The notes under the pieces were generated by a model. The model had not been told where the DNA came from, made no database searches, and saw nothing but the letters and a program-made list of their open reading frames with translations. Positions 694-50,800 of a stretch of 64,000 nucleotides of DNA are shown piece after piece. Origin of the DNA: Tubulanus polymorphus (lineage: Eukaryota > Animalia > Nemertea). The translations under genes were made by a program, and so were the position numbers. Position 1 is the first letter of the stretch, and each line of letters opens with the position of its first letter. The stretch is taken from contig NC_134028.1 in NCBI RefSeq assembly GCF_964204645.1, forward strand, positions 13,439,263 to 13,503,262. The letters run 5' to 3'.

Positions 694-725
694 AATTTTA
701 ACTTTAATAAAAATATATATAATAA

Positions 726-1490
726 ATGGAAGGAGGTAAAGTATATAAACATATTCCATACATCGATACACATGAAAATAATGACGGTTTATATTATGTA
801 ATACCTTGTAATATAGCTTTGATATTTGATCCTATTTTCAAAAATTATAAAACTAAACTAATAGATATCGATAATAATAAAAGTGAAGTTGTTGATAATT
901 TAAGTAATGTAATTGATAATAATGTAATACCTACTACAGTAATACCTACTACTTCTAATAATGTAATACATTCTACATCTAATAATGCAATAATATTAAA
1001 TGTTAGTAAAAGTAGAAATTATTGTGAATTATTGTAAAGGTGAATTTTCAAACGCTCCATCAAATTGGAATAAACATATGAATACAAATTCACATATTAC
1101 TAATGTTATAGAACGTGTTGGTTTAAAAGAATTTATAGAACACCCATTTAGATATGTTACAAAGTTTGTTTCAAATAAAAAAGTAAATGGTAAAGAATTA
1201 TATGAAGATTTTTTATTAGCAACACCTAATAAAGATGAATAAGATTTAACCGATGCTAATGAAATATTAGGATCAAACACTGTAAATGAAATATTAGTAG
1301 CAAACACTAATAAAGATTCTATGAAACATAAAGTAGAAAATAATGATAACTTTGATTGGATGAATAAGCATAACAATGAAACAACTATTGATGATTCGGT
1401 AAAAAAGGTGAAAAATAAGTATAAAAATTATGAAGAAAAGATACGGTAGAGAAATTGAATAGCTTGTTAGGGTCTGATAGTGAAAGTGAT
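726..1490 (+). pseudogene. Hypothetical Polinton protein with a C2H2-like Zn finger (fragmented homolog of 38161..39069)
   Basis: ORFs 726..1037 and 1000..1242 align with the intact 302-aa ORF in copy C (YCxxCKGEF...H...H). Confidence 0.7.
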
Positions 1491-2350
1491 TCAGAAAGTA
1501 ATTATCTAACACTCAAAAAGTAATAAAGGTTGAAAATTGTATAAAATAATAGTAAATAAAAAAGGGGGTTTTAAGTATTTAAGGTATCTAATAGGGTATC
1601 AGGTATTAGGGTATCAGGTATTAGGGTATCTAATGGGGTATCAGGTATTGGGGTATCTAATACATAGATATATAAATAGTTATTTTATAAATTTATATTC
1701 ATAGGGAAATTGTAGTCTCAGTAATAATTTTGAACCTTTATTATTCTTTAATTTATTCATATATTCATCATCTAATTCAGTAGGTATAATTTGATTTTCT
1801 TCCAATGATTGTTGCATAGATTTTTTATCTTTGTTATAAAATAAAACTAGAAATCTTATATTCTCCCTAAAGTCTTTAACAATTGAATTATATTTTTATG
1901 AAGAAAAGATACGGTAGAGAAATTGAATAGCTTGTTAGGGTCTGATAGTGAAAGTGATTCAGAAAGTAATTATCTAACACTCAAAAAGTAATAAAGGTTG
2001 AAAATTGTATAAAATAATAGTAAATAAAAAAGGGGGTTTTAAGTATTTAAGGTATCTAATAGGGTATCAGGTATTAGGGTATCTAATGGGGTATCAGGTA
2101 TTGGGGTATCTAATACATAGATATATAAATAGTTATTTTATAAATTTATATTCATAGGGAAATTGTAGTCTCAGTAATAATTTTGAACCTTTATTATTCT
2201 TTAATTTATTCATATATTCATCATCTAATTCAGTAGGTATAATTTGATTTTCTTCCAATGATTGTTGCATAGATTTTTTATCTTTGTTATAAAATAAAAC
2301 TAGAAATCTTATATTCTCCCTAAAGTCTTTAACAATTGAATTATATTTTT
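1429..2350. repeat. Tandem duplication (~468 + ~453 bp) containing GGGTATC/GTATTA short repeats and the ATPase 3' end
   Basis: TATGAAGAAAAGATACGG starts at ~1429 and again at ~1897. The second copy has one fewer 15-bp GGGTATCAGGTATTA unit. Confidence 0.9.
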
Positions 2351-2744
2351 GATTTAAAACCCATGTTGTTATCCCGAAATGTCTCCCAGAGAAAGCTAAA
2401 TAACATAACTCACTTTCTCTCACTTTTGAATCATGTAAATTGGCGCAATCATCTATAATGAATAATGTATTTGATCCGTTATAAGTATCAATTGCTATTT
2501 TAATACAATTATCTAAATTTTCTTTTACTGTTTTAGGATCTAATATAATAAACTTTTTCATCTTAACTATGTCTCTATTATATGTTTTATTCATTTCATA
2601 AGTAGGACAGAATAATATTATATTATCAAAATGATTCTTATAAATAGTTTCTAACAAGTCTAATATGAAATGTGTTTTACCACAATTGGTTACTCCAGTA
2701 ACTAACATATTATGTGGTTCAAATATAAATAAATCTTTATTCAT
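2133..2744 (-). CDS. A32/FtsK-HerA family genome packaging ATPase
   Basis: Walker A GVTNCGKT, Walker B FIIDD, GRH arginine-finger motif, and NQ sensor. Confidence 0.92.
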   Translation of the reverse strand: MNKDLFIFEPHNMLVTGVTNCGKTHFILDLLETIYKNHFDNIILFCPTYEMNKTYNRDIVKMKKFIILDPKTVKENLDNCIKIAIDTYNGSNTLFIIDDCANLHDSKVRESELCYLAFSGRHFGITTWVLNQKYNSIVKDFRENIRFLVLFYNKDKKSMQQSLEENQIIPTELDDEYMNKLKNNKGSKLLLRLQFPYEYKFIK

Positions 2745-3849
2745 TTATTCTTTTAATTTTACTAGATAAAATCCATTCATTAAATTTATCATCATATCCT
2801 TTATATTTCACCAAAGAATACTTTTTTCCTTTAAGAGTTTTTGTTTTCAATACTTTTTCTATTTTGTATTCTATTTCATCTGGATTTGGTACAAGTGATA
2901 ATTCTTGTTCGTAGAAATAACCTAATATTTCTTCATCTTTTAGATCTTCTAATTTATAAACAAATGGTTTAGTTAATATTATCTTTTTAATCTTGAATAT
3001 TTCTTCTGTAAAATTAGGGGTATAACCTTTATAAAAGGTTTTTCTATATTTAGATATTCTAACGTGTTGTCTAATTTTAAATTTAGGTTCACCGAAATCA
3101 TGTGTGACAAATGCTCCATATAAATTATTCCAAACTATTTCTGAATTATCTTGTTTTCTAGCTGGTATAGGTTTCATATTTATAGAACTATGTTTAGAAT
3201 TATTATAACCTTTCACTAAATCATCTAACACATCGATATATTTATATGTTTCATTAGCAGTAAAGTATTTCCACATTCTAGTTTTCAATGTTTTATTAAA
3301 TCTTTCTATAATAGATGCTTTTTTATCTGAGTGGGTTGAAAAATAGTCTACATCGTTATCAGATAATAGTTTTTTAGAATGTTTGTTATAAAATTCCTTA
3401 CCTTCATCAAATTGTATCTTATCTGGAATAGCTTCTTTAAATATAGATTTAAAGGCATTTGTTACTTCTATACCAGTTTTATTTTTGATTGGAATTGACC
3501 ATGCGTATCTACTGAATATGTCTATAACATTAAGTATCCAGAAATATCCTTTGTTGTATTCCTCTAAGTTCTTCATGTCAATTAAATCTGCTTGCCATTG
3601 TTGATCGATATATGAAACCATAACTTTTCTTGTTAAATAAGTTTTATCCATTTTCTTGTGGATTTGATATGTTGGTTGATTTTGTAACCATGATTTTAAT
3701 TCACTATATTTTATACCACCATGTGGGTGCCATACGGCACCATCACCATTATCAGATTTAATTTTATTCCATAATTCTGAAACGTTAGAATATGATAGTT
3801 CACTTTCTGGGTTATAATATAAATCTCTTAAATATTGTTCTTTTTTCAT
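2737..3849 (-). CDS. Retroviral-like (RVE, DDE) integrase with C-terminal chromodomain
   Basis: WQADLIDM, IDIFSRYAW, FDEGKEF and ERFNKTLK motifs; C-terminal YKIEKVL...VKYKGYDDKFNEWI chromodomain. Confidence 0.95.
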   Translation of the reverse strand: MKKEQYLRDLYYNPESELSYSNVSELWNKIKSDNGDGAVWHPHGGIKYSELKSWLQNQPTYQIHKKMDKTYLTRKVMVSYIDQQWQADLIDMKNLEEYNKGYFWILNVIDIFSRYAWSIPIKNKTGIEVTNAFKSIFKEAIPDKIQFDEGKEFYNKHSKKLLSDNDVDYFSTHSDKKASIIERFNKTLKTRMWKYFTANETYKYIDVLDDLVKGYNNSKHSSINMKPIPARKQDNSEIVWNNLYGAFVTHDFGEPKFKIRQHVRISKYRKTFYKGYTPNFTEEIFKIKKIILTKPFVYKLEDLKDEEILGYFYEQELSLVPNPDEIEYKIEKVLKTKTLKGKKYSLVKYKGYDDKFNEWILSSKIKRINE

Positions 3850-3855
3850 TCTATT

Positions 3856-4245
3856 TTAATCCATTAATAATAATTTAGATTTAGTTTCAATGGCTTTATG
3901 ATTTGACTTATCTTCTGGTATGATAGGTTTACTGTCTGTACACGGATAACTAAGTTTCCGATTGTCATTGGAATCATCTTTATCATTAGATTTGAATTTT
4001 GATTTATATATTACACCGGATAATATAATAACTGTTACTAATCCAATTGTAATATATAATTTATAATTACTTCCAGCATTAGAAGAATCAGGTGGATTAT
4101 TATTTGAATCAATATCAGATAATTCATTTATGTCAGTTAATTTCTTTTTCTTAGCTTTTTTTAATTCTGAAGATCTTTTACCTAATTCTCTTGCCCATTT
4201 AATTTGTTTCTCGGATCTAGCCTTTTTCTTAACTCCATCACTCAT
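3856..4245 (-). CDS. Small Polinton protein with basic N-terminus and a single TM helix
   Basis: Hydrophobic LYITIGLVTVIILSGVIY segment; homologs at 34921..35289 and 16265..16660. Confidence 0.75.
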   Translation of the reverse strand: MSDGVKKKARSEKQIKWARELGKRSSELKKAKKKKLTDINELSDIDSNNNPPDSSNAGSNYKLYITIGLVTVIILSGVIYKSKFKSNDKDDSNDNRKLSYPCTDSKPIIPEDKSNHKAIETKSKLLLMD

Positions 4246-5094: not shown

Positions 5095-5763
5095 TTAACC
5101 ACTCATTAAAGACTCAACATATTGTTCATTATTTGGATTATTGTTCCATTGATCAATAAATTTCTTTGCCTTTGTTAACTGTTCTAAATATAACTGTAAA
5201 TCTAGTTTATTAGATTTAATTATGTTTTCCTTCTTTTCTAAAGGTCTTAAATTCTTCCAATTCCAAATAAGTTTTTTATTGTATTCATCATTCATGTTAA
5301 ATTTAGATATTGGTAACACGTGATCAATATGGTAATAATCCCCATAATTATCTATATTTATTTTATCATCGAATTGATATATTATCCATGATTTTAAGAA
5401 TTCATCTGAGCAACCCAATAAATTAGATAGTGTTTCTGAATGTGTTTCTTTGTTGAATAATTGTGTTAATCTAGTCCTTAAGCATTGTTTCAATCTAAAA
5501 TTAAGATCTGTTTTATATTTTTCTCTCATATATTCTGCCATATAATAATTATAATGTTCTATATTATCTTCTCGGTATTGTTTGGTATATAGTTTAAAAC
5601 AAGTTTTACAGCAATATTGAAAACCATCTTTGCTAATCTTACGCTTACTAAATTCTGTTGAAGCTAATTTATCTAATTCACATTTAGAACACTTCTTGTA
5701 GTATATGTTTATAACGCCAGTGTTATTTGTAATATTGATAATTTGTGGTTGTTCTGGTTCCAT
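5095..5763 (-). CDS. HNH endonuclease with N-terminal Zn ribbon (phage/giant-virus type)
   Basis: KKCSKC...CCKTC, HIDHVLPISKF and NLRPLEKKENIIKSNK motifs. Confidence 0.8.
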   Translation of the reverse strand: MEPEQPQIINITNNTGVINIYYKKCSKCELDKLASTEFSKRKISKDGFQYCCKTCFKLYTKQYREDNIEHYNYYMAEYMREKYKTDLNFRLKQCLRTRLTQLFNKETHSETLSNLLGCSDEFLKSWIIYQFDDKINIDNYGDYYHIDHVLPISKFNMNDEYNKKLIWNWKNLRPLEKKENIIKSNKLDLQLYLEQLTKAKKFIDQWNNNPNNEQYVESLMSG

Positions 5764-6779
5764 TTATTATACGTATTTTTTTACTAAATTGGTTAATATT
5801 TTAGAATCCTCTTCCATTTCTTCGACCAACGTCATCCTTTTTCATTCCTCGCTGCTTTTGATAAGTTGTTTCGATTCCCTGATATCTAAATAATACCAGT
5901 GGGTAAAAGCGCGTATTCGTGCGCGGTTTTGCTTAATGCGCATGCGTTAATCATAATTATATATTCATTCTATAAATTCTGTAAAATAGAAACAACCGAA
6001 CACAGAAAATATCAAAACGTGTTCGCATTAGGCAAACCGCGCATTCATGCGCGCTTTTGCTTAACGCGCATGCGCTAATTATAATTGAAACGAATCATTA
6101 TTGAAACGACTGAACATAAAAATTCACCAAGTAGATTTACACAATACATATACAAGTATGTTCAGTCGTTTCTTCCAATACATCATTTGATTTCTATAAA
6201 TACAATTTATAATTACAAACATTTTTTCAATTGCTGGTAAATATTTAATTATATCAACAAATGTTAAACTTAATCATTGGAGTCTTAATGTTTTTGAAAT
6301 TCTTATATAGTTTCTTCGTCGATCTTTTGGTGATTCTATTGGTTTAATATCCATTGCTGTTGATTCCTCAGTCAGAAAGAGTATCTTGAGTTTCTCTATC
6401 ACTTCTTGATGCGTATGGCGTTTTATTAATCTAAAAGATATTAGCGGCAACTCTAGCCATCTAAAAGATATACTAAATACACTTAAATATATCTAAAGGT
6501 TTCATATTTAATAGCCCTAATAACTACAACAAACAGTACTTACATTTAGATTTATAATTGTAAACTATAAACTCCTAATTTCGTTTCGAAAGATAGAATA
6601 TCCTGAGCACAATGTTACGGCGTATGTTCATTTCTTGCCACGTCATCTGGTTCCGGTTCTAGAGTGTTCTCTGCACGTTTGCAATAATGATTCATAAGTC
6701 TCGGCGTCATAGTAACAGCTGTAACAGCTGTGAATTTATAGATTTATTCCATAGCTCTGTACATTGAATGTATATAGGT

Positions 6780-7031
6780 TCAAATAGAATCATGTTCTAG
6801 TAAAAATATCGGATCCTTGATATCAAATTCCTCAACGTATTGTTCATTATTTGGATCATTATTCCATAATTCAATAAATTTCTTTGCCTTTGTTAACTGT
6901 TCTGAATATAACTGTAAATATTCTAGTTTCAATTTATTCTCTAAATGTGTTTTAGTTTTATTGTGTCTTGCTTTTTGGGATTTATCTATATTGATTTTAC
7001 ATGTTGGACAGTAGTACTTATTTGCTTCCAT
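6780..7031 (-). pseudogene. Deletion chimera: pPolB N-terminal Zn finger joined to an HNH gene tail
   Basis: The first 38 aa are nearly identical to 48111+ (MEANKYYC). The rest matches the C-terminus of 5095..5763 (LQLY.EQLTKAKKF). Confidence 0.8.
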
Positions 7032-7079
7032 TTTAATAATAAAATTTTTATTAAAATTGATTTTAAAAGTTCAATGATT

Positions 7080-15441: not shown

Positions 15442-15778
15442 AGTAATTAGAAGATGGCGTTTTCAGATCAGAGTACTAGAGTACTAGACACCACTCATCA
15501 CAGCTAGGCTCTAGTGAGAACGGACGATTGCTCTGTGACACACATATACAGTGAGTGCGCGTAACAACAACTGCGCGTGGATAGATCGATACAGTGAGTC
15601 TCTACTGAGAACGGTTATTAACGCGTGTGTTATTACTGTAGTACAGTGATTGCGTGTCAACTGTGCCCAGATAAATAGATGCTGTGAGGCTTGGGTGAGA
15701 ACGGTTAATAGCGTGTTTGTTATATACAGGGGGAAGTAATCCCCACTCATCACCACAAGTAATTTGTTTTCCTTATAA

Positions 15779-16104
15779 ATGGGAGATAGAAAAACATTCT
15801 TAGCAACAATAAATAACAGAATTAAACCAGCAAAAAACAATTTGAAATAAAAAAGTTAGTTGATGTTACAAAAGAAATTGAACATAAAATATTGAAATTA
15901 GAAAAGATAAAAACTAAATATGGAGAGAAAGTATCAGCGAATTTAAGCTACTGTAATGTTAGTACATCGCGAGAATTTAAAGTATTTTTACCTGATAAAT
16001 GGGTTTCATTGAGTACAGAGGAATTAAAAGATTTAGAAGGATTTAAAATAATCTATCATGGAAAAAATGAAGATGGCCATCATGATTTAGAAATTGTTGA
16101 TTAA
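15779..16104 (+). pseudogene. Small Polinton protein (KYG...FLP motif; possibly OB-fold ssDNA-binding)
   Basis: Homologous to 45403..45756. The TAAATG start at 15779 is followed by a premature stop. The OB-fold call is inference. Confidence 0.6.
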
Positions 16105-16264: not shown

Positions 16265-16660
16265 TTATTTTTTTTGCTTTTTTTCTAAAATATTCATCCA
16301 TTTTTTTATTGTCATTTTTGGAATTTCAGAATTATTTTTATTTTTGATAGCAGTTGTTTCAGAATTATTAATATCATGAATTTTATTTGATTTCTTATAC
16401 CAATTACACCCAATCAAAATGAATGCAATTACAAATCCAACTGTAAAATATAAATATTTATCAAATATTCTATTATCAGAAAGAGTAGAAATAACAATAT
16501 TTTCACCATTTTTATTAACATTTTTATTACTTATTTTTTCTTTTACAGCTTTTTTATATTCTTGTGATTTAATTCCTAATTGCCGAGACCATTCAATTTG
16601 TTTCTGTGATCTCGGTTTTTTCTTCACAGTTAAATCCTTCACTTCTTCCACCTCGCTCAT
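16265..16660 (-). CDS. Single-TM basic protein (homolog of 3856..4245)
   Basis: KKKPRSQKQIEWSRQLG motif plus a hydrophobic helix. Confidence 0.7.
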   Translation of the reverse strand: MSEVEEVKDLTVKKKPRSQKQIEWSRQLGIKSQEYKKAVKEKISNKNVNKNGENIVISTLSDNRIFDKYLYFTVGFVIAFILIGCNWYKKSNKIHDINNSETTAIKNKNNSEIPKMTIKKWMNILEKKQKK

Positions 16661-16663
16661 TTA

Positions 16664-17197
16664 TTATAGAAAAATTTTTACTTTAATATTTGAAAATGTT
16701 ATAACCCCAGTTGATAATAATGTCATAAATCCACCTAAGTGAAATGATAAATATCCAATCCATTTATTTAATTCGGTCATAACTAAATAATCATTTTTTA
16801 AATCGGAATATAATCTATTTTCATCTTCAATTGGTAGTATAAAATTACATAATTTACTATAACCTTTTACTACATTTTCTGATATCGCGTCATTAATTCT
16901 AGCTGTTCTCGAGGCTTCATAAGTCTTAAATAATCTAATAATTTCATCTGATTTCATTGTATCTTATTCATTATAAGTTAAATTTTTACCGACAAAATTT
17001 TTACATTTTCCAGATGCTATTAATATTTCTAATTGATGTTTACAGTAAAGTTAATATTCATAATTATTATTTGTTGTAACATTATTTAAAGCACCATCAT
17101 CTGGAATTAATTTGTTTTCTGTTATTCCTAAATCATCTAAAGTTTTTTCAATTGGAACATCACCTTTTTTAGATTTTATTTTCTTTCCACCTACCAT
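16664..17197 (-). pseudogene. Homolog of 4238..4846, interrupted by stops
   Basis: LYSDLKNDYLVMTEL is shared; TAAATG start at 17197. Confidence 0.7.
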
Positions 17198-17501: not shown

Positions 17502-18108
17502 TTAAATAAATTCATATTTAAATGGGTGTTGTAATCTAAATAGTAATTTTGATCTTTTAATATTTTTCAACTTATCCATATATTCATTATGTAAATCATG
17601 TGGAATAATATCATTTTCCTCAAGTGCATTTTTCATCGATTTTCTATCTTTATTGTAGAATAAAACTAGAAATCTAATGTTTTCTCTAAAGTCTTTAACA
17701 ATTGAATTATATTTTTGATTTAAAACCCAAGTTGTTATCCCAAAATGTCTACCAGAAAAAGCTAAATAACATAACTCACTCTCTCTAACTTTTGAATCAT
17801 GTAGATTAGCACAATCATCTATAATGAATAATGTATTTGATCCTTTAAATATCTATTGCTATTTTAATACAATTATCTAAATTTTCTTTTACTGTTTTAG
17901 GATCTAATATAATAAATTTATTATTTCTAGTAATATTTCTATCATAAGTTTGATTAAATTCATATGTTGGACAAAATAATACCATATTATCAAAATAGTT
18001 TTTATAAACAGTTTCTAATAAATTTAATATAAAATAAGTTTTTCCACAATTTGTTACACCAGAAATTAACATATTATGAAGCTCAAATATGAATAATTCC
18101 TTATTCAT
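17502..18108 (-). pseudogene. Packaging ATPase, copy B (premature stop at 17845)
   Basis: GVTNCGKT motif; downstream DNA matches the ATPase of copy A. Confidence 0.85.
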
Positions 18109-19223
18109 TTATATATTTTTAATTTTACTTGATAATATCCATTCATTGAATTTATCTGGCCATCCAACCCATTTTACTAAAGAATATTTTTTTCTTTTAA
18201 TAGTTTTTGTTTTTAATATTTTTTCAATTTTATATTCTTGTTCTAGATTTTCAGTAGTTAAACTCAATTCTTCTTCGTAAAAGTAGCCATCAACTTCTTC
18301 ACCATCTAAATCTTCTAATTTATAGACATATGGTTTTGTTGTTATTACCTTTTTTATTTTATATATTTCCCTAGTAAAATTTCGATCGTATCCTTTGTCA
18401 AATATCTTTTTATACTTAGAAATTCTAACATTTTGACCAACTTTAGGTTCACCAAAATCATCTCCAAGAAATGCTCCATATAAATAATTCCAAACAATTT
18501 CAGCATTTTCAGGTTTTCTAGCATCAATAGGTTTCATTCCAATAGAAGAATGATAAGAATTATTATATCCTTCTATCAATTTTGGTAAAACATCAATCCA
18601 TTTAAAAGTATTATTTGCTGTAAAATATTTCCACATTCTTGTTCTTAATGTTCTATTAAACAACTGCTGCTTTTTTATCCGATTTTGTTGAAAAATATTT
18701 AATATTATGATTATCTAAGAGTTCATGAACAAGTGAATTATCAAACTCTTTTCCATCATCAAATTGTATTTTTTTCTGGTTTTAGTTTATCATCCGAAAG
18801 AAATTTTCTTAAAACATTTGATGTTTGTACAGCATCTTTTCTATAAAGTGGGAAGCTCCATACATAACGACTAAAAATATCAATTATATTCAATAACCAC
18901 CAATAATCATCATTATCTTTCTTAACATTTTTCATATCAATTAAATCTCCTTGCCACTGTTGATCTACATAACTTACCATAGTTTTACGAGTTTTATATT
19001 TTCTAACAATTTTTTTATGTGTTGTGTATGTTGGTTGTTCTAACATAAATTCATTTATATCTTTATATTTAACTAAATTTTGTGGGATAATCTTATCTAA
19101 TCTATCTTGTTTTACTTGACGCCATATATTTTTAGTAGAAGAATAAGCAACCGAACTCTCAGGGTTGTAATATAAATTTCCTAAATATTGTTCTTTAGTA
19201 TTAGGAGTTTTTTTACCACCCAT
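18109..19223 (-). pseudogene. RVE integrase plus chromodomain, copy B (frameshifted, divergent allele)
   Basis: WQGDLIDM, IDIFSRY, FNRTLRTRMW and VKWVGWPDKFNEWI motifs. Confidence 0.9.
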
Positions 19224-19253: not shown

Positions 19254-20504
19254 CTAATATTGAATACTATCTAATTGTGAATTTACAATATTTAATTGCG
19301 CGTCAGATATAATATAAATATGCATTTTGAAATTTAGGCTTCCTTTTTTCTTTGTCATGAATAATTGTATTCCATCTTTAGTGTTCTGTAGTTTTTTTCC
19401 AGAACCATGTAATGAATTATCCTCTGTTGTTCTAAAATCTAACCATAATGCATATTTATTGCCGGTATAATAATCAATTTGATTAATATTACAATTTTCA
19501 AATGATTTTACTTTTTCATTCATAAAATGTTTTCTAATTTCTGGCCACTGATCTATCAATCTCATTCCTTGACAAAATATTTTATTTGCTATTCCTTCGA
19601 TAGTTATTTCTACTTTTGTTATTTCAGGATTATAATAATTATCAACCTTTATTGCGCCATTAGAATATGTTGCAATGGTAAAAAATATTAATGTACCTTA
19701 ATAGATCTTCTTGGGAAGTTAATATTCTCATTAATTATTTCATCATTTGCATTAATAGTTACAGTTTTAAATTTATCAATATAATCAATCATATAATAAT
19801 AAAAATCCTTGATTGTATTGAGTTTGAATTGTGCTAGCAATATTTTCATTAGTTACTGTGTCATATTCTAAACATATATTCGATAATTTATAACCCATAT
19901 CTTTAACAACGCTAGATAATACAATTTCATTTACATGAGCAAATGTTATCTCAAATATAATATCTTCTTGAATTGCGTATTTATATAAAGGTGCATTATT
20001 ATTTATCAATTCAAAGTCTAATGGAATTTTATATTTGCTTCCATAAATCTTTTTAATCAAATTATCTGTGGCACGAGTTACTATTGCGTCATTAGCTCCT
20101 GATCTTAATTTATTATGGTTTTCCGATTGAATACCCTGAAATATCATATTATTTCTATTTTCTTTAGTTAACCATAAATCTTTATAATGCATAAATAAAT
20201 TATAATCATCTAATGAGAAAAATGTTTCTGGACCAATCTTTATAGTTAATTTTTTAATCAAATATCTCCCAACATTATCAACAACATAATTATTATCATG
20301 ACCAATAACTTTTATATCAGCTGATAAATAAATACTATTTGGAACATAAAAAGTATTTTGTGTTAATCTAGGAATTCTAACATATAAAGTTTCATCGGGA
20401 TTAATATTTGAAGGATTATGAGTAATTATATGATGTGATCTTTCTGCTTTAATAGCATTAGATATTCTAGAAATCTTAGAAGGACTTATATAACTCCCAC
20501 TCAT
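19254..20504 (-). pseudogene. Major capsid protein, copy B (frameshifted)
   Basis: ORFs 19785..20504 and 19254..19565 together give a ~415-aa beta-rich protein (HNPSNINPDETLYVRIPRL). Confidence 0.75.
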
Positions 20505-20524
20505 TTATTTAACAAAAAAATTAA

Positions 20525-24279: not shown

Positions 24280-24347
24280 TATTTATAACATAAAAAAATT
24301 ACCGCTCATCACTAAAAATTAATTTTAATAAAATTTGTCCTTAATAA

Positions 24348-25664
24348 ATGGATGAGAAGATACCATGCGAAATTTGTGGTGAACTTCTAAGAAAAAGTAA
24401 TATGGCTCGACATATGAAAAAACATGATGAAAATTATAAACCCCCTAAACTAAACTGTCCAAAATGTAATAAATTATTCTCAAGAAATTATGTTAAAAAA
24501 CATTCAGAGAAGTGTAAAATTAATGGTGCAACGGCTAATGTTGATAGTAATGAAAGTAATAGTAATTCTGCTGAAGTTGTACCTGAAATTATTTGGAAAA
24601 GACCTTTCTTATTCTATGATAAGGATAATATAAAAGATCATTTCTGCGAGCCTTGTCGAGTAAAATATAGCCCTGAAATATAGAAGATTGGGAGAATCAT
24701 CAATTTCGTAAAGTACATATAGATAAAATTTCTTATAAATTTGAAACTGAATTCAATGAAAGAAAAATAGTTTATTAGAAAAAATTAAATATGAGAAAAC
24801 GTTAACAGTTGAAAAGTTAGAAAAACAATATAATGAATTAACAAGAAAAACATATTATTGTAAATATTGTAAATTGATTATTACAACAAGTAATTCAAAT
24901 CTACATAATAGAACAATAAAGCATAAAGAAAACGTAAGAAAATACCAAGAGCTTAATGAAGATCTATTACCAATAAATTATAAACGAAAATGCCCACAAT
25001 GTAATTACGCGACCTTAAGACAAGAAGGTACTGTGTTATTTTGTGTTGATTGTGGATGGCAAAGGAATTTATGGGGTGAAGAAAAAACTAGAAATTTTCT
25101 CATAGAACCAAAATTAAATTATCTAGATGAAATTTTTAAAATATTTTCTATAGAAGATCATACACCGGAATATATGCAATGGCTTGAAAAAATGAAAATA
25201 ATAGAAAATAAAAATGGTGAAATAACTAAAAAAGATATTATAAAAACAATTATTCCGTCAACATTTAACACAAAACAAAAGAAAATGTATTTATATTTAT
25301 TATTTAACGATTATTATGATAAAACCTAAATTAACAGAAGAAGATATGGAAAATATAAAAAAAAATATTCAAACAAATATTAATGTATCATTTGGAAAAT
25401 AGAATAACAGATTCAATTAATTATGAATTCTTTTTAAATAAGATTGTAAATTATTTAAACATAGATATTATAATTCCATTTGACGAATTAACAAACAAAA
25501 AGAAACAAAGAGAGCGAGATGAAATGTGGAACATGATAGAACTTTATTTAAATGAGAAAAATGAAATGGAAGAAGAACCTAAACAAATTATACAAGAACA
25601 ATTATATGAAAATGAAGAAGCCAATAGTGATTTCGAGTATGATGATATTGATTTTATGTTTTAA
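24348..25664 (+). pseudogene. C2H2 Zn-finger region followed by a poxvirus A2L/VLTF3-like late transcription factor domain (frameshifted)
   Basis: CPQC-x13-CVDC ribbon, KTRNFLIEPKLNYL, SINYEFFLNKI and RDEMWNMI. These match recalled VLTF3 motifs (CSGC...CIFC, SNFHVSNKLIHL, TINYSFFLDKI, and a terminal W). Confidence 0.72.
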
Positions 25665-28600: not shown

Positions 28601-29770
28601 TTTCTTACATTTACACCATTAATAGCATTATATTCTTCTAATTCTTGATTAATTGCGCCCAATTTCTTTGATAATTGTTTTATAAATAGATGGGTATCAT
28701 AGCCTGATAAATTATGAAATAATATTGGTACGAAATTAACTTTCTTAGCTTGTAAATTACAATCTTCATGAGCAGCTCAACGATATTTTGAATTTAAATG
28801 ATCATGATCTCTAACTTTTTTATCAAATGAATAAAAACGTTTTTCACAATAACAACAATGAGTTGCATAATTAAAATCAATTTCATCTTCTTTTGTCATA
28901 ACTATTCTTTTATTTTTGTTTAATAATTTTGCAAAATCACTTTCTAATTCAATCATTTTGTTACAAAAATCATTAACTACATCTTCACCTCTAAAAGAAA
29001 TATATTGACTTTCATATAATTCAGGATAATTTGATTTTATATAAATTCCATAAGCAGCAGCTCTTTGATGAACTTTTTTAATTGTATTTATAATTGGCGG
29101 GTCTTGTGTTGTGTCTTCATTTAATTCATTTCCTTTATCCATTGATTTTAATAATTGCTTTTTGTTATATATTTCTTTTCTATCTTGATCAGTTAATTCT
29201 TTATTCAACGATTCAAAATCCCCATAAATTACAAATGGAACAATATTCTTAAATTTATTTTTAGTAAATTTCAATTTATAATCTTTTTCTGTTGGCATTA
29301 TTAATTTACAAAAATCTTTATTATCACATAATTCTTTATGTTTTAATAATGTATTCTTAGTCATAAATTTAGATAAACATTTTCTACATAGATAAATTTT
29401 ATGATGATGATCACTTTCTGTTCTAAAGAATAAATCAATTTTTTATCATCAAAATAATCTTTTCCTAAAACATTATTACTCAAATTTTGATGGTGTTTTT
29501 GTGATTCGAGATGTCTATTATAATTCCTTTTTACTATAAATTCATTACAAACTTCACATTTTATTTCATCCACATTCATATTTTCTAATCTTTCTTTTCT
29601 TTCATTGGAATTTTCTGGAGTTTCAAAATCTATTACATTTTTTATATGATTTGCAGTTTTTTCATGTCGTGTTTTATGAGATGTATTGATTTATTTTTTT
29701 TATAATATGTGCAATAATATTGATTTTTATAAACATTATTATTTTCTGGCTGGTGTTCATTCTCCCCCAT
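25661..29770 (-). pseudogene. polB: Protein-primed family B DNA polymerase (pPolB), copy B, intein-containing, with stops, frameshifts and an N-terminal deletion
   Basis: YGDFES exonuclease I, VRDHDH endoVII-like motif, YIDANNLYGWAM, KLMNNSFYGK, YFD/TD and KLKGI. Confidence 0.92.
26117..27181 (-). mobile_element. Intein (355 codons) with LAGLIDADG homing endonuclease at the pPolB motif C site
   Basis: LYFD|SVTADTPILL, block B VTEDH, GFFMGDG and GFYAADG, YVYDLSTEDG...IAKN|TDAY. One in-frame TAA at 27092-27094. Confidence 0.93.
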
Positions 29771-29857
29771 TTATTGGGAAAAAAAATTACTTGTGGTGAT
29801 GAGTGGTGTTTCGCCCGCTCCCCGCTGATCTGAAAGCCCACTTTCCCAATTACTACT

Positions 29858-33197: not shown

Positions 33198-33809
33198 TTA
33201 TTTTATAAATTTATATTCATATGGAAATTGTAGTCTCAGTAATAATTTTGAACCTTTATTATTCTTTAATTTATTCATATATTCATCATGTAATTCAGTT
33301 GGTATAATTTGATTTTCTTCCAATGATTGTTGCATAGATTTTTTATCTTTGTTATAAAATAAAACTAGGAATCTTATATTCTCCCTAAAGTCTTTAACAA
33401 TTGAATTATATTTTTGATTTAAAACCCATGTTGTTATCCCAAAATGTCTCCCAGAGAAAGCTTAATAACATAACTCACTTTCTCTCACTTTTGAATCATG
33501 TAAATTTGCGCAATCATCTATAATGAATAATGTATTTGATCCTTAATAAGTATCAATTGCTATTTTAATACAATTATCTAAATTTTCTTTTACTGTTTTA
33601 GGATTTAATATAATAAACTTTTTTATCTTAACTATATCTCTATTATATGTTTTATTCATTTCATAAGTAGGACAGAATAATATTATATTATCAAAATGAT
33701 TCTTATAAATAGTTTCTAACAAATCTAATATGAAATGTGTTTTACCACAATTGGTTACACCAGTAACTAACATATTATGCGGTTCGAATATGAATAAATC
33801 TTTATTCAT
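33198..33809 (-). pseudogene. Packaging ATPase, copy C (premature stops)
   Basis: Near-identical to 2133..2744. Confidence 0.88.
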
Positions 33810-34914
33810 TTATTCTTTTAATTTTACTAGATAAAATCCATTCATTGAATTTATCATCATATCCTTTATATTTCACCAAATAATACTTTTTTCCTTTAAG
33901 AGTTTTTGTTTTCAATACTTTTTCTATTTAATATTCTATTTCTTCTGGATTTGGCACAAGTGATAATTCTTGTTCATAGAAATAACCTAATATTTCTTCA
34001 TCTTTTAGATCTTCTAATTTATAAACAAAAGGTTTAGTTAATATTATCTTTTTAATCTTGAATATTTCTTCAGTAAAATTTGGGGTATAACCTTTATAAA
34101 ATGTTTTTCGATATTTAGATATTCTTACGTGTTGTCCTATTTTAAATTTAGGTTCTCCGAAATCATGCGTAACAAACGCACCATATAAATTATTCCAAAC
34201 TATTTCCGAATTATCTTCTTTTCTAGCTTGTATAGGTTTCATATTTATAGAACTATGTTTAGAATTATTATAACCTTTCACTAAATCATCTAATACATCG
34301 ATATATTTATATGTTTCATTAGCAGTAAAATATTTCCACATTCTAGTTTTCAATGTTTTATTAAATCTTTCTATAATAGATGCTTTTTTATCTGAGTGTG
34401 TTGAAAAATAATCTACATCGTTATCAGATAATAGTTTTTTAAAATGTTTGTTATAGAATTCCTTACCTTCATCAAATTGTATCTTATCTGGAATAGCTTC
34501 TTTAAATATATTCTTAAAAGCATTTGTTACTTCTATGCCAGTTTTATTTTTGATTGGAATTGACCATGCGTATCTACTGAATATGTCTATAACATTTAAT
34601 ATCCAGAAATATCCTTTGTTGTATTCTTCTAAGTTCTTCATGTCAATTAAATCTGCTTGCCATTGTTGATCAATATATGAAACCATAACTTTTCTTGTTA
34701 AATAAGTTTTATCCATTTTCTTGTGGATTTGATATGTTGGTTGATTTTGTAACCATGATTTTAATTCACTATATTTTATATCACCATGTGGGTGCCGTAT
34801 GGCACCATTTTCATTATCAGATTTAATTTTACCCCATAATTCTGTAACGTTAGAATATGATACTTCACTTTCTGGGTTATAATATAAATCTCTTAAATAT
34901 TGTTCTTTTTCCAT
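33802..34914 (-). pseudogene. RVE integrase, copy C (stop at 33928 removes the chromodomain)
   Basis: Near-identical to 2737..3849; the DDE core is intact. Confidence 0.9.
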
Positions 34915-36999: not shown

Positions 37000-37615
37000 C
37001 AACGTATTTTTCATTATGTGTTGAATTCCATCATTCAACAAATGTCTTTGCTTTATCCAGTTGATCTAAATATAATTTCATATCTAGTTTATTAGATTTA
37101 AAGGTCTTAAATTTTTCCAGCTCCATATTAGCTTCTTATTATAATCATCATTCATGTTAAATTTAGAAATCGGCAACACATGATCAATATGAAAGTATTC
37201 ACCATAATTATCTATATTCATTTTATCATCGAATTGATATATTATCCATGATATGAAAAATTCATCTGAACAGATTAGATAGTGTTTCTGAATGTGTTTC
37301 TTTGTTGAATAATTGTGTTAATCTAGATCTTAAGCATTGTTTCAATCTAAAATTAAGATCTGTTTGATATCTTTCTCTCATATATTCTGCCATATAATAA
37401 TTATAATGTTCTATATTATCTTCTCGATATCGTTTGGTATATAGTTTAAAAGAAGTTTTACAGCAATATTGAAAACCATCTTTGCTAATCTTACGCTTAC
37501 TAAATTCTGTTAAAGCTAATTTATCTAATTCAAATTTAGAACACTTCTTGTAGTATATATTTATGACACCAGTGTTATTTGTAATATTGATAGTTTGTGG
37601 TTGTTCTGGTTCCAT
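37000..37615 (-). pseudogene. HNH endonuclease, copy C, frameshifted
   Basis: ORF 37262..37615 is near-identical to the N-terminus of 5095..5763. The HIDHVLP motif is readable near 37180. Confidence 0.8.
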
Positions 37616-37784
37616 TTATTATACATTTATTATTTTTTTACTAAATTGATTTTAGAAGTTATTCATTTATATGTTATTCATGAATATATATGAATTATTT
37701 CAATAAAACTTTACTAACACTTTTAATGTTTAAAAATCTAACTCATACAAATATAAATATTGAAATATGTTTAAAATATACCTA

Positions 37785-38160: not shown

Positions 38161-39069
38161 TTAGATAATCACTTTCTGAATCACTTTCATCATCACTCTC
38201 CTCCAATTCATCATCACACACTTATTCTTCACCCTTTTTACCGTATCTTCATAAATAATTGGTTTATTGATATACTTATTAGTCATCTCAACTATATCTT
38301 TATTTTCTGATTTAAGTTTCATAGAATCTTTATTATCAATGCGCTTTCCTGTAACTATATCACCATGTGGGTGCCATACAGCACCATTTTCATTATTATC
38401 TTTATTAGTGTTTGCTCCTAATATTTCATTTACAGTGTTTGATTCTAATATTTTATTAGCATCGGTTAAATCTAATTCATCTTTATTAGGTGTTGCTAAT
38501 AATAAATCTTTATATAATTCTTTACCATTTACTTTTTGATTTGAAACAAACTTTGTAACATATCTAAATGGGTGTTCTATAAATTCTTTTAAACCAACAC
38601 GTTTTATAACATTAGTAATATGTGAATTTGTATTCATATGATTATTCCAATTTGATGGAGCGTTTGAAAATTCGCCTTTACAATAATCACAATAATTTCT
38701 ATTTTCACTAACATTTAATATTATTTCATTATTAGATGTAGAAGGTATTACATTATTAGATGTAGAAGGTATTACATTATTAGATGTAGAAGGTATTACA
38801 TTATTAGATGTAGAAGGTATTACATTATTAGATGTAGAAGGTATTACATTATTAGATGTAGAAGGTATTACATTATTATCAATTACATTACTTAAATTAT
38901 CAACAACACCACTTTTATTATTATCGATTTCTATTAGTTTAGTTTTATAAATTTTGAAAATAGGATCAAATATCAAAGCTATATTACAAGGTATTACATA
39001 ATATAAACCATCATTATTTTCATGTGTATCGATGTATGGAATATGTTTATATACTTTACCTCCTTCCAT
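38161..39069 (-). CDS. Hypothetical Zn-finger protein with a 24-bp tandem repeat (VIPSTSNN x6)
   Basis: Open 302-aa ORF; repeat at ~38730-38880. Confidence 0.75.
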   Translation of the reverse strand: MEGGKVYKHIPYIDTHENNDGLYYVIPCNIALIFDPIFKIYKTKLIEIDNNKSGVVDNLSNVIDNNVIPSTSNNVIPSTSNNVIPSTSNNVIPSTSNNVIPSTSNNVIPSTSNNEIILNVSENRNYCDYCKGEFSNAPSNWNNHMNTNSHITNVIKRVGLKEFIEHPFRYVTKFVSNQKVNGKELYKDLLLATPNKDELDLTDANKILESNTVNEILGANTNKDNNENGAVWHPHGDIVTGKRIDNKDSMKLKSENKDIVEMTNKYINKPIIYEDTVKRVKNKCVMMNWRRVMMKVIQKVII

Positions 39070-39101
39070 TTATTATATAAATTTTTATTAAAGTTAAAAT
39101 T

Positions 39102-43118: not shown

Positions 43119-43134
43119 TTATATAATTAAAAAA

Positions 43135-43569: not shown

Positions 43570-43589
43570 TTATTTAGCAAAAAAAATTA

Positions 43590-44012: not shown

Positions 44013-44036
44013 TTATTTAGCAAAATAATTACGCAT

Positions 44037-44615: not shown

Positions 44616-44630
44616 TTATATAGTGAAAAA

Positions 44631-45385
44631 TTACTCTTTACATCTTATAACTAATTCATATATCACAGGAAAGTTATTCAAATCAATTAAATAACCATTA
44701 TGATTTCTTATTTCTAATTTAAAATTATTGAAATGTGGAATACAAGGTTTGAAATCACATTCTGTTAAATTATAATTTATTTGAGTTCCAAATTGTTTAA
44801 CATTTTTTAACGGTAAAATATTTAGTATACTAGAACTACAAATTGTTTCTTTAGTTGCTTCGAAAGTTTTTGTAGGCTCGATTAAATTGCAATAAATATA
44901 AAAGTGTGTAAAAGGTAATATATTTGGCGTAGTATCAACATTTGAATAAATTCATTTGGATTAACTCCTAGCATTTTAGCTAATGGTTTTCTTACTATGA
45001 ATTTATATTGTTCATTAGTTAACTTTATTCTTATTTTATTAGTACTATTGATTTTATTAAATTTAATGTTAAACCCAACAGATTCACCCACTTTTAACCG
45101 AGCTCTTCTATTAATTTCTTGTGCTAATGTATCTAAATTGTATAATCCTGGTCTTAGAAATAGATGATATTATTTATCCATATTTCTATCATGAATCATA
45201 AACAATCTATGATCAAAACTTTTATCCGATATATTATAAAAAGAATTACATAAACTTATATTAACTAATTTTAAATCTACACAATTCTTAAATTCTCTAT
45301 CTAATTGTACAAGTAAATTATGAGATTTATAACTAGTAAGTTTTCTTGAATCAACAAATATTCTGTATTCCTTTAATTCCGCCAT
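44631..45385 (-). pseudogene. Minor capsid protein (penton, single jelly-roll), fragmented
   Basis: IFVDSR, SFYNIS, RPGLYNLDTL, YIYCNLIE and EIRNHNGYLIDLNNFPVIYEL, a pattern typical of Polinton/PLV minor capsid proteins. Confidence 0.75.
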
Positions 45386-45402
45386 TTATTTTACATATTT
45401 TC

Positions 45403-45756
45403 TTATTCGAAATCTATTTCATGGTGCCCCTTTTCATTCTTACCTTTGTATACGAAATAGAAATCTCCAGAACATAATTCTTCTAAGTCTTCACTTGATA
45501 ATCTATGAAATCTATCCGGTAAATATGTTCTGAATTTATACGTATTTCCTTTTAATCCTTCATATTCTAAGTGTATAACTAATCTATCTCCATATTTGTT
45601 AGTAACTCTATCAATATTTGTAATTAGACATTTCTTATAGATTATTAATTCTTTTAACTTCTTAAATTTATAATCTACTGATTTGACATTTGAAATATCT
45701 TTTATTCTATCTAGAAATGATTTGTTGTTCTCACTGTGCGCTTGTTTACTCTCCAT
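45403..45756 (-). CDS. Small Polinton protein (possibly OB-fold ssDNA-binding)
   Basis: Intact 117 aa with TNKYGDRLVIHL...YLPDRF; homologs at 15779 and 47867. Confidence 0.7.
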   Translation of the reverse strand: MESKQAHSENNKSFLDRIKDISNVKSVDYKFKKLKELIIYKKCLITNIDRVTNKYGDRLVIHLEYEGLKGNTYKFRTYLPDRFHRLSSEDLEELCSGDFYFVYKGKNEKGHHEIDFE

Positions 45757-45785
45757 TTTAATAACATATTTTTATTAAAATTTGA

Positions 45786-46082: not shown

Positions 46083-46089
46083 GAAATCT

Positions 46090-47020: not shown

Positions 47021-47318
47021 CATCCTCCCCCGGCAGGGATTCGAACCTGATGGCATCGAGATTGCCACGGCACGAAACCCTGCCATAATCGACCGTGTGC
47101 GCAGATACATGCGCGGTTCAAATCCCGGGTATTCCCATTTATAGGTCTTCCTGGAAATTTGCCTCAACGATTATACAACGAGCAATCTGATTGGTGCTGC
47201 CAGTTTTCGTTCGGAAAGCTGCGCATGTACCTGCGCGCCCGGTCTACTGATGCAGGGGTTCGTGCCGTGGCTGAGTGTAACGATGCCATCAGGTTCGAGT
47301 CCCTGCAGAAGAAGGATG
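47021..47318. mobile_element. 298-bp MITE-like palindromic insertion in gag
   Basis: ~100-bp imperfect inverted arms CATCCT.../...AGGATG. Removing it restores gag ...KSDES|IDQYVTEL. Confidence 0.8.
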
Positions 47319-47713
47319 ACTTTCGTCTGATTTCTTCTTGCGAGTGTTGAATTTATACTTCTCCACTGTAACGTTTTTACGTGGTTCGCAATAGTCATCG
47401 AAAGCTTTCAGCACTGCGACTATTCTGTTGCTATCCGCTACCGACAATTGCAACGTATTGTATATGTCCCTACCTTCTTGACCTATGATATACAGGAATG
47501 CTGAACATTTCTCTGCATCTGTCTTGTCTTTCATCACTAGGTCTAGGTATAGTCTCATGGACTGCTTCCACTTTTTCCATCTCTCCGAGAGGTTTTCATC
47601 GGAGAAATTTAGTTCACACGGCGGTTTTAAATGTTCCTTTCTACTGACTTTTATAGTCTTCCAAACATCTATTTACCCCGTACCGGCCTTGTCTGGTATT
47701 TACAGGTTCGGTA

Positions 47714-47724
47714 CGCTGCCACCA
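47714..47724 (-). promoter_or_regulatory. Primer-binding site TGGTGGCAGCG (probably tRNA-Leu)
   Basis: Directly follows the LTR on the minus strand and is complementary to a ...CGCTGCCACCA tRNA 3' end. Confidence 0.75.
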
Positions 47725-47866
47725 TGTAACATAACGAACAAGTAACACACCATTAACTTGATTCTAGTTTTTTATTTCACTTCTTACTACAGTCTACGTG
47801 GCAGCCATTATCTTACACCACTAGATGGCAGCACTAGCTGGTTATATTCGATCATCTACTGTTACA
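47725..47866 (-). repeat. Gypsy 5' LTR (142 bp)
   Basis: TGTAACA...TGTTACA termini, minus-strand AATAAA and adjacent PBS. No second LTR was seen in the window. Confidence 0.85.
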
Positions 47867-50800
47867 GTTACTAACAAATATGGAGATAAATTAGTTATCC
47901 ACTTACAATATGAAGGATTAAAAGGAAATAAATGTAAATTCAGAACATATTTACCAGATAGATTTCATAGATTATCAAGTGAAGATTTAGAAGAATTATG
48001 TTCTGGTGATTTCTATTTCATATATGAGGGTAAGAATGAAAAAGGGCACCATGAAATAGATTTCGAATAAAATATGTAAAATCAATTTTAATAAAAAAAT
48101 GGATATTAAAATGGAAGCAAATAAGTACTACTGTTCAACATGTAAAATTGATATAGATAAATCTCAAAAAGCAAGACATAATAAAACTAAAACACATTTA
48201 GAGAATAAATTGAAATTAGAATATAAAGATGATATATTAGAAACTAAATTAGATGGAACATACAAATGTGACACATGTAATCAATCATTCAGTGAAAAAT
48301 GATATTATGAATAACATTTAAAATCTAAAAGTCATATTAGAAATATGAATAATGATATTTTAGGTGAACATTATTTTGATAATAATAATAATAAACCGAA
48401 GACAATTAAAAGAATAAAAGATACTCTAAATAATGAGAAATCATATATGGAAAATGTTAGAAATTATATTAATTCATTAGATAATAAAAAGGAAATAGAA
48501 ATAACCGAAGCATTCAAAAGTGATATTGGTCCAGCAGTTATCGAGTTTAAATTTCATAAAGGAAAAACATTAGAAGAAAATAAAAAACATTTAGAAAATA
48601 TGAAAAATATTATAAAAATAATAAAAGATGTTGAAAACCTTAAAATTAGTATATCTTCTAAAGTTAAATTTATAAAATCTGAAGATAAACCAATATATAA
48701 TATAAATTCTCATTCACAAAATATTATTTCAAAACAACATATAGATGATAAATTAGATAAATGTTATAATGAAGTAAAAACTAAAATAGAAGAGAAAGAT
48801 TTTGAAGGATCTGGTTTAATATTTGATGAAATAATATTAATGACTTTACATGTTTATACCACAAAATATAATAAGTTAACTAAATCAAAACCAATTGATG
48901 AAAATAATTTATCATATTATGAAGATGATAGTATAAATGGATCAAGTTATATCAAACTACCATTTAAAACAAATGCTGTTATAAATGTACAAAATTTTGA
49001 TGATAAATGTTTTCTATGGACAATTATAAGTTGCTTACATCCAACAAAAGATATTACACATACTTTTAGATTAACCAATTATAAACCATTTGACAATAAT
49101 TATAAGATAGATAATTACCTTTATACCTATCAAAATATTATGATTCAAATGATGTAATAGATATATCATATTATGAGAATCATTATATGTGGATTAAACA
49201 AATCGATTTATTTTTTAGAAGAGAAAATAACCACAATAAAATATATCTACGTAGAAAATGTTTACATATATTCAGTAATGAAAGTACATTATTAAATAAT
49301 AAACAATTATGTGAAAATCATGATTATTGTAAAATAGTTTTACCAAATGAAAAGGATAAAATATTAGAATTCAAAAAATATGATTACAAGAATAAAGTAC
49401 CATTTGTTATATATAGAGATTTTGAATCATTAAATAAAGAATTAACTAATCAAGATGGAACAGAAATTTATCATAAAAGAAAGAAATTAAATTCTAATAA
49501 AAATGATATAATTGATTATTCAAAATCCTCTAATAACAAATACTATTAAAAAGATTCATCAATCAGCTGCAGCTTTTGGATTATATATTAAATCTGATTA
49601 TCCAGAACTAATCAAAAGTGAGTATAATTATTACAGAAATGAAAATGTTATCAATCATTTTTGTGACTTATTAATTGAGTATGAAATAAAATTTAGTAAA
49701 CTATTAGATACAAATATAGAAATTATAATGAGAGAAGAAGATAAAGAAGCATTTGAGTTTGCAGATAAATGTTATTATTGTGAAAAGATATTTAATCTAA
49801 AAGACAAAAAAGTAAGAGACCATGATCATTTGAATGGAAAGTTTAGAGGTGCAGCGCATGAGAATTGTAACTTACAAGCTAAGAAAATTAACTTTGTTCC
49901 AGTAATATTTAATAATTTATCAGGATATGACGCACATTTATTTATCAAACAGCTATGTCATAAAATAGAAAGATTAAATTCAAATAGATTAAAAAATAAA
50001 ATACCAACTTATAAATTTAAAATGTTAGCTAAAACATCTGAGAATTATATATCATTCCAATTTGGGTGTCTAAGATTTATAGATTCATATAGATTTTTAG
50101 GTAGTTCATTAGATAACTTATCAAAATCATTAGTTGATGATGAATTAAGAATATTAAAACAACACTATCCAAATAATGATGATTTTCAATTAATGAGATA
50201 TAAAGGCGCAATACCATATTCATTTTATAAATCACATAATGATTTCAACATTACTGAATTATTAAAAGAACAATTCTATGATGAATTAAAAAATGAATAT
50301 GTTAAAGATGAAGTATATAATAGAACATTGAATATTTGGAATCATTTTGGAATGAAAAATCATGGACAATTAGTAGATTTATATTTAAAATCAGATGTAT
50401 TATTATTATCGGATATATTCGAAAGGTTTAGAGATGTAAATTGTAGCATGATAGCAACAGAATAGTCGCAGTGCTAATTGTAAGATGTTATTCATCACCA
50501 GGATTAACTTGGGATTGTGGTTTAAAATTTACAGATATAAAAATGGATTTGTTTACAAATATAGATCAAGTATTATTATTTGAAAAATCTATAAGAGGAG
50601 GAGTTTCAGGTGTATTAGGTGATATATATTTCAATGTAAATGATAATCCTGGATATAAGTTATTATATATAGATGCAAATAATCTATATGGTTGGGCAAT
50701 GATGGAACCACAACCTTATGGATTATTTGAAATAAGTGAAGTTTTACAACATGAAAATAATGATAAATTCGATTGGAAGAAAAGAATCCTAGATATTGCA

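Follow-up and report, generated by a model that had tools for sequence, protein, structure and literature searches.

How are the genes of Mavericks (Polintons) in animal genomes transcribed, and do these elements need a helper virus? We address this question with 64,000 nucleotides of the nemertean Tubulanus polymorphus (contig NC_134028.1, positions 13,439,263 to 13,503,262), which we call the window. The window contains four rearranged and degraded Maverick pieces with 21-27% GC content: copies A (~1-7100), B (15740-29870), C (33140-46110), and D (47857-51510). The hallmark trio of Mavericks is present, with Pfam matches for the protein-primed DNA polymerase or pPolB (DNA_pol_B_2, E = 2.9e-6), the integrase (rve, E = 1.2e-8), and the packaging ATPase (Pox_A32, E = 4.3e-12). 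In this Maverick clade, TAAATG is the start of most genes, and roughly one helical turn upstream of it is a run of either T or A. The two classes of upstream sequence, A-rich and T-rich, exist and are mostly kept in related elements. In our best overall explanation, which we rate just short of even, they are two poxvirus-like promoter classes, and the A-class is intermediate-like and is used earlier.

Two classes of sequence upstream of gene starts

We scored 68 gene starts: 34 from the window and 34 from close relatives (loci L001-L004 and L013). These counts do not include a start at 15779, which we identified afterward. TAAA is present at 67 of the 68 starts, and 62 of them have TAAATG or TAAAATG. 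The motif A[AG]TAAA lies 10-13 nucleotides before the TAAA at 18 of 62 gene starts, as compared to 4 of 194 non-gene TAAA(A)TG sites from the window and the five relatives. The enrichment is seen both in the window (11/31 gene starts vs. 1/93 non-gene sites from the viral regions, P = 5e-7) and in the relatives (7/31 vs. 3/101, P = 0.0015). The spacing is constrained as well: the spacer is 10-13 nucleotides (mode 12) for 18 of 25 motif matches at gene starts, but for just 4 of 26 matches at background sites. A T-run is found at 32 of 62 gene starts and at 6 of 194 non-gene sites, and a longer form of the A-rich motif, TTTA[AG]TAAA (the full core), is found at 11 of 67 starts and at 1 of 194 background sites.

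We also fit an unsupervised two-class model to the 52 starts that were left once 10 near-duplicates were dropped. The two-class mixture gained 73.2 log units, as compared to 22.5 ± 2.6 for column shuffles (maximum 29.8, n = 60) or 46.5 ± 4.2 for non-gene sets of matched size (maximum 54.9, n = 30). The model yields an A-run class with 23 starts and a T-run class with 29 starts, and the distribution of scores is bimodal. The T-class has T at -10 in 26/29 starts and T at -9 in 29/29; the A-class has A at -13 in 23/23 starts and T at -10 in 10/23. Orthologous starts are in the same class for 52 of 64 pairs, while permutations give a mean of 32 (P = 2e-4).

The first-pass annotation had cited seven starts with the A-rich motif, and in our motif scan, all seven do have A[A/G]TAAA 10-13 nucleotides before TAAA(A)TG. 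They represent five gene families, because two pairs of sites are duplicates. One pair is from the zinc-finger (Zn) gene: the start at 726 has the full site TTT-AATAAA-N11-TAAATG (703..728, + strand), which is kept in L001 and L002, and the start at 39069 has a full site with the same spacer of 11 (39067..39092, - strand). The other pair is the broken pPolB of copy D, which starts at 48111 (AATAAA-N11-TAAAATG at 48087..48113, + strand), and a start at 7031 with a full site that ends in N11-TAAAATG (7029..7055, - strand) and with no upstream gene on the same strand. The start at 7031 had been described as another pPolB gene, which is incorrect: the open reading frame (ORF) at 6780-7031 encodes an 83-amino-acid chimera of the N-terminal zinc finger of pPolB and the C-terminal tail of the HNH protein. 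The remaining full sites are those of the VLTF3-like gene at 24348 (AATAAA-N12-TAAATG at 24324..24350, + strand), which is head-to-head with the penton gene and has no upstream gene on its strand; the KYG gene at 45756 (AATAAA-N10-TAAAATG at 45754..45779, - strand); and the HNH gene at 5763 (TTT-AGTAAA-N13-TAAATG at 5761..5788, - strand).

The motif is also present at genes that were not on the earlier list. For the A32 packaging ATPase, it lies upstream of the starts at 2744 (AGTAAA-N10-TAAATG at 2742..2763, - strand, within the end of the integrase coding sequence), 18108 in copy B (AGTAAA-N12-TAAATG at 18106..18129, - strand), and 33809 in copy C (33807..33828, - strand). A transmembrane (TM) gene that starts at 16660 has an A/T hybrid site, AGTAAA-N13-TAAATG (16658..16682, - strand). 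The penton (minor capsid) gene that starts at 45385 has an A-run (45383..45406, - strand), and the HNH start of copy C has the full core at a spacer of 18 with a second AATAAA at a spacer of 7 (37613..37645, - strand).

The spacing between the core and the start codon is conserved across copies, both in the relatives and in about 200 reads from other genomic copies. (Read depth is several hundred to about 1,100 in 1.9 Gb of host reads, which suggests many genomic copies.) At the VLTF3 site, no indel between the core and TAAATG is listed in those reads at a 3% threshold, and the substitutions that are listed are mostly in the spacer and the flanks, with 11/199 and 3/195 in the core. At the KYG site, an insertion in 192/682 reads and a deletion in 173/624 reads (both about 28%) offset each other, so the distance from the core to the ATG is kept and the initiator becomes TAAATG. 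Three of the cited starts do have TAAAATG, as had been noted (7031, 48111, and 45756), but given these reads, TAAAATG at 45756 is an allele and not a mark of the class.

The classes do not cleanly separate replication genes from capsid genes

The first-pass annotation had proposed a cascade in which the replication genes and a late factor come first and the capsid genes come after. The distribution of the classes fits this only in part. The full core is mostly on the Zn gene (four starts), pPolB (two), the VLTF3-like gene (two), the HNH gene, and the KYG gene of copy C, along with the penton of L004. The putative major capsid gene is T-class in 5/5 cases (for example, the T-run and TAAATG at 20502..20523, - strand; another copy starts at 40349), as are six uncharacterized genes in every case. 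On the other hand, the penton is A-class in 2/3 cases (in copy C it has a looser A-run, which is intergenic), and looser A-runs inside the upstream coding sequence precede the ATPase in 5/5 cases and the TM gene in 4/5. Conversely, T-class starts are found at the pPolB and the KYG homolog of copy B and at the KYG homolog and nucleoside kinase genes of L004.

We also examined this split at the level of gene families. If we consider only genes of tested function, it is 4/6 vs. 1/3 families (P = 0.52). The split with assumed functions is 5/7 vs. 1/11 (P = 0.013), which requires that eight uncharacterized genes be structural and that the Zn gene be regulatory. Overall, there is no clean division of the classes between genes for copying and genes for the capsid.

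The classes also differ between two replication modules. In the module shared by copies C and D and L003, pPolB, the KYG gene, and the HNH gene are A-class, and the capsid block is mostly T-class. In the module of copy B and L004, pPolB and the KYG homolog are T-class, and VLTF3 keeps a full A core; so the type of element that carries VLTF3 has its replication genes in the T-class. As had been noted, pPolB of copy B is an exception, with a T-tract start at 29770 that lies inside a terminal inverted repeat (TIR). The right arm of the TIR (29766..29806, - strand) pairs with the left arm (15743..15783, + strand) as a 41-nucleotide inverted pair, with AGTAGT at the right end, and the left arm gives a T-tract start to the broken KYG homolog, whose ATG is at 15779. 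Because the TIR includes the T-tract and the ATG, one promoter serves both genes, one at either end of the element. We also observed that the two replication modules accompany one capsid block: the KYG proteins (45403-45756 vs. 125-469 of L004) are 32% identical and the pPolB proteins of copies B and D are 66% identical, while capsid proteins are 73-89% identical.

Some of these functions are predictions. The VLTF3-like gene (24348..25664, + strand) is found in the window in copy B only, where it is broken over three frames; it encodes a C2H2 finger, a U1 finger with a Cys ribbon, and a C-terminus with a partial match to Pox_VLTF3 (E = 9e-5; 22.7 bits, which is under the cutoff of 25 bits). 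KYG (45403..45756, - strand) is probably a single-stranded-DNA-binding protein (SSB) with an OB fold: it clusters with phi29-SSB-like proteins at 0.85, which is a lead, and its top fold match is the SSB of PRD1, P12, a weak hit (E = 6.6e-3). The gene at 45385 is a predicted penton with a single jelly roll: a low-confidence model of the L004 ortholog (pLDDT 52) matches the penton of mavirus (E = 1e-4), with further matches to a PBCV-1 capsid chain and to Sputnik. Capsid_N matches the putative major capsid protein (MCP) weakly (E = 0.016), and its identity is proposed from that match, its size, and its conservation; searches of PDB sequences with penton and MCP profiles had no matches. Neither an adenovirus-type cysteine protease nor a TATA-binding protein (TBP) was found among 46 scanned proteins from these degraded copies and partial relatives, and no gene for an RNA polymerase was found among the element's scanned ORFs.

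The copy-B penton starts at 24279 behind a T-tract. At 24280, 308 reads leave the copy-B arrangement and continue with the sequence of copy C, so in this genome the penton more commonly has its A-class start. In L004, the gene that is head-to-head with the VLTF3-like gene (10340-10981) encodes a deoxynucleoside kinase (dNK, E = 1.7e-31).

TAAATG starts follow the lineage

We searched for relatives with an alignment of the integrase and considered the best 80 of 442 metagenome loci, 3 viral loci (which are distant), and 14 genome loci. L001-L004 and L013 are close relatives; across the copies and L001, L002, and L004, the ATPases are 70-89% identical and the capsid proteins are 73-83% identical. 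No relatives were found when viral contigs were scanned with pPolB, with the MCP, or with an alignment of MCPs. The 9 genome loci (of 14) with ORFs listed are distant Maverick-like pieces that lack regular TAAATG starts.

We then built a quick integrase tree with 68 rows, which leaves out loci with short matches or fewer than 3 ORFs. TAAATG starts are found in 15/16 rows of one clade (SH-aLRT 99), in 4/8 rows of a second branch, and in 0/33 rows of the branch of canonical Mavericks. In other words, TAAATG starts are lineage-bound, and the signature marks a Maverick lineage from its DNA alone. Loci L021, L022, L029, L039, and L068 have other gene sets, and most of their genes also start at TAAATG; four of these are in the second, mixed branch, and L021 is outside the tree. 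Canonical-looking blocks of Maverick genes are also found in a bacterial metagenome-assembled genome (L085 and L086), which is probably a misbinning.

In L018, which is more distant, the neighboring genes for a zinc-finger protein (ZnF), pPolB, and a weakly SSB-like protein share their own, related core, TTTTATWCAATA, 7 nucleotides before TAATAAATG. This favors the replication-first idea for the L018 module. Some head-to-head genes share a palindromic initiator: CATTTAAATG is found at 1137/1142 of L006, 2137/2142 of L007, and 187/192 of L018, and CATTTATAAATG at 1058/1065 of L016. Across these loci, the pairs are mostly ATPase and integrase.

Likeness to poxvirus promoters

In vaccinia late promoters, which have TAAAT(G), the 10th base ahead of TAAAT is a conserved T; intermediate promoters lack this T and have an AT-rich stretch 15-19 nucleotides upstream, followed by a T (PMC11980589). 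Another study places the intermediate core 12 bp before TAAA, which is read directly by the viral polymerase; the core is recognized by its shape and has no strict consensus, and the G8R scaffold is TTT-AAATAA-N12-TAAAATG (PMC12917281). The layout of late promoters is also described in PMC5294985, and the initiator of asfarviruses differs (PMC7163114).

The A-class resembles this intermediate layout, as had been claimed: all A-class starts have TAAA at the start codon, and an AT-rich core, with a T before it, lies about 12 nucleotides upstream. The T-class has the late layout, with TAAATG and a T about 10 nucleotides upstream among other Ts. In both systems, the TAAA or TAAATG initiator overlaps the ATG. 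The first-pass annotation gave the intermediate consensus as AAANAA-N11-13-TAAA. Its statement that A2L is an intermediate gene of vaccinia is borne out by PMC11980589, which lists D13L and A32L as intermediate too; the VLTF3-like gene of the element, like A2L, is under an intermediate-type site. Since D13L and A32L, the vaccinia homologs of the capsid and ATPase genes, are intermediate, the poxvirus analogy does not predict that capsid genes are late. There are also differences: the core of the element is AATAAAA and that of vaccinia is AAATAA; the putative capsid gene of the element is T-class while D13L is intermediate; and no RNA polymerase is encoded by the scanned ORFs of the element. 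We predict that the A-class functions like a poxvirus intermediate promoter, and we do not class it as one.

Which machinery reads these starts?

The T-run and the A-run are likely to be two promoter classes for a poxvirus-like RNA polymerase, which would come from a co-infecting large DNA virus. That such a polymerase, supplied by a helper, initiates within TAAAT seems probable to us; it would slip there and leave a 5' poly(A) leader, and the element would depend on it. The A-class is predicted to be intermediate-like and earlier and the T-class to be late-like, in an order that would not be simply replication before capsid. This two-stage part is the weaker half of our finding.

Several observations weigh against two stages. 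A-class TAAATG starts often keep a T at -9 (16/21 vs. 51/136 background sites, P = 0.001), which is not expected if they are like vaccinia intermediate promoters, where the late T is absent. Hybrid sites exist at several genes, among them VLTF3, the TM gene at 16660, and the start at 7031. The class changes between elements for the penton, HNH, TM, G44615, and integrase genes (12/64 ortholog pairs differ), and orthologs have promoters in common by descent. The positions that define the classes were picked after inspection of the data, and the cores of the ATPase and TM genes, being inside coding sequence, may owe their conservation to constraint on the protein. Because the vaccinia core has no strict consensus (PMC12917281), a resemblance in DNA of 22% GC is weak evidence. 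In the wider clade, 58 starts have just one kind of core, which is AATT-type and has T from -11 to -9 (49/58 have it at -11), and just 2 of them match the strict A core; replication genes are mostly missing from those contigs, which are short. Finally, no helper virus was found. When we searched viral contigs for TAAATGG preceded by the full core, we found at least 120 loci; 21 of these open an ORF of at least 80 amino acids, and none of those had a homolog of the 27 window proteins, so there is no helper candidate.

These observations could be explained by a single stage with two strengths, in which all of the sites are late-type TAAAT promoters with an A-to-T step and a T at -9. T-runs would be strong promoters for abundant virion proteins, and A-runs would be weaker promoters for low-copy enzymes, the penton, the ATPase, and regulators. 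The penton and the ATPase are low-copy parts of the virion, and both are A-class. Also, Davison and Moss reportedly found in 1989 that activation of vaccinia late promoters is greater with T-runs than with A-runs. Because the T at -9 is often present in the A-class as well, we consider this the main rival, possible but doubtful. Why would mere weakening lead to a fixed form, TTT-A[AG]TAAAA, on five unrelated families, or to bimodal scores? Furthermore, the SSB should be abundant, yet it is A-class in copy C, while scarce products would be expected of pPolB of copy B and the nucleoside kinase gene, which are T-class; and the replication genes of L018 have a separate core in common. Alternatively, the host's RNA polymerase II might transcribe the element in the nucleus without a helper, perhaps with the VLTF3-like protein; TAA-ATG would be a translational insulator and the runs of A or T would be bendable promoter DNA. 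These are integrated elements with a gene for an rve integrase, and with many copies suggested by read depth and no helper found, this has some appeal. But transcription starts 25-30 nucleotides downstream of a TATA box, and these cores, about 20 nucleotides before the ATG, are too near. The Kozak context is poor, with T at -3 relative to the ATG in 59/67 starts, the TAA is the stop codon of the upstream gene at just 3/52 starts, and canonical Mavericks lack TAAATG, so we view transcription by the host as unlikely.

The annotation itself had raised the concern that AATAAA might serve the upstream gene as its poly(A) signal, with the spacing (for AGTAAA as well) due to tight packing of genes. 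AATAAA is the canonical signal, the cores at 726, 45756, and 48111 are 9-19 nucleotides past the upstream stop codon, and T-class initiators often include AATAAA themselves. However, the VLTF3-like genes (24348, and 11054 in L004) are head-to-head with their neighbors, and the start at 7031 has no gene upstream. The distance from the stop codon to the core varies from -27 to +84 nucleotides (12 cases, one of them relative to a spurious antisense frame), while the distance from core to TAAA clusters at 10-13. AATAAA is within 90 nucleotides of 5/15 gene ends, which is near the ~25% expected from its density. These cases, especially the divergent ones, make the poly(A) explanation very unlikely. 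We also rejected the idea that the T-run is a poxvirus early terminator (TTTTTNT) of the upstream gene, as T-class starts are found at divergent or TIR positions (24279, 10981 of L004, 29770, and 15779), and we rejected coupling of stop and start codons, which would apply to only 3/52 starts.

Other features of the window

The DNA around the Maverick pieces has 33-47% GC, with retrotransposon fragments and a satellite. Specifically, fragments of LTR (long terminal repeat) retrotransposons between the pieces, and a 31-bp satellite, are found at 30400-32700, 46440-47800, and 54400-61000. A self-complementary unit of about 350-410 bp with Maverick-like ends occurs three times (7107-7520, 32753-33142, and 46089-46433), at or near the junctions of the copies; it could be a MITE-like (miniature inverted-repeat) element or back-to-back termini. 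The pPolB of copy B (25661-27091, - strand) is interrupted by an intein (Intein_splicing, E = 5.5e-6) that includes a LAGLIDADG domain (LAGLIDADG_3, E = 2.2e-6). The pPolB of copy D has an Endonuclease_7-like stretch (49728-50465, E = 2.8e-5), and L003 has one as well. The Zn gene has an in-frame repeat of 24 nucleotides (38698-38913). Where the ATPase and Zn genes converge, there are short palindromes or tandem repeats (~1960-2130 in the window, 3010-3168 in L001, and 3526-3692 in L002), which differ in sequence between elements and are possibly terminators.

Comparison with known systems

Copying of helper promoters is known for virophages of protists, and two-class, pox-type postreplicative promoters would name the kind of helper. 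They predict that transcription starts inside TAAAT, that transcripts have a 5' poly(A) leader, and that the factor needs of the two classes differ. More speculatively, the whole Maverick clade in animal genomes might be virophages of poxvirus-like viruses, although we think this less likely than not. The helper's intermediate machinery would drive a first wave, of the VLTF3-like factor and also of the replication genes in one module, and the late machinery, partly redirected by the element's own VLTF3, would drive a second wave. An element of 15-20 kb would then encode a postreplicative cascade of two steps, which would suggest that the hosts have pox-related viruses yet to be discovered. In the literature we searched, which excludes subscription journals and bioRxiv supplements, we found no report of TAAATG promoters in Mavericks.

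Like those virophages, and those polinton-like viruses (PLVs), that are paired with large viruses (Gezel-14T with PgV, mavirus with CroV, and Sputnik with mimivirus), the element is a small integrating or satellite dsDNA virus without an RNA polymerase. According to two preprints, virophage and PLV genes carry motifs of large DNA viruses, and the polymerase gene of Gezel-14T has the helper's early motif (10.1101/2022.07.28.501842, 10.64898/2026.07.28.741278). Those systems are found in protists, their motifs are of the mimivirus family, and their helpers are known or suspected. In contrast, the element has two classes of pox-type postreplicative motifs and lies in an animal genome. The egovirus and mosaicism preprints do not mention "promoter".

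Another comparison is with the PLVs associated with entomopoxviruses, which are polinton-like, in animals, and linked to poxviruses (PMC11296320). These have a gene for a cysteine protease and either a tyrosine recombinase or no integrase at all, and the main text of that paper, without its supplements, does not contain "promoter", "motif", or "VLTF". The pGKL virus-like elements of yeast are also linear and have a TAAAN initiator, which yields 5' poly(A) leaders of the type predicted here; but they have a reduced RNA polymerase of their own, and their upstream element is early-type (PMC6211774).

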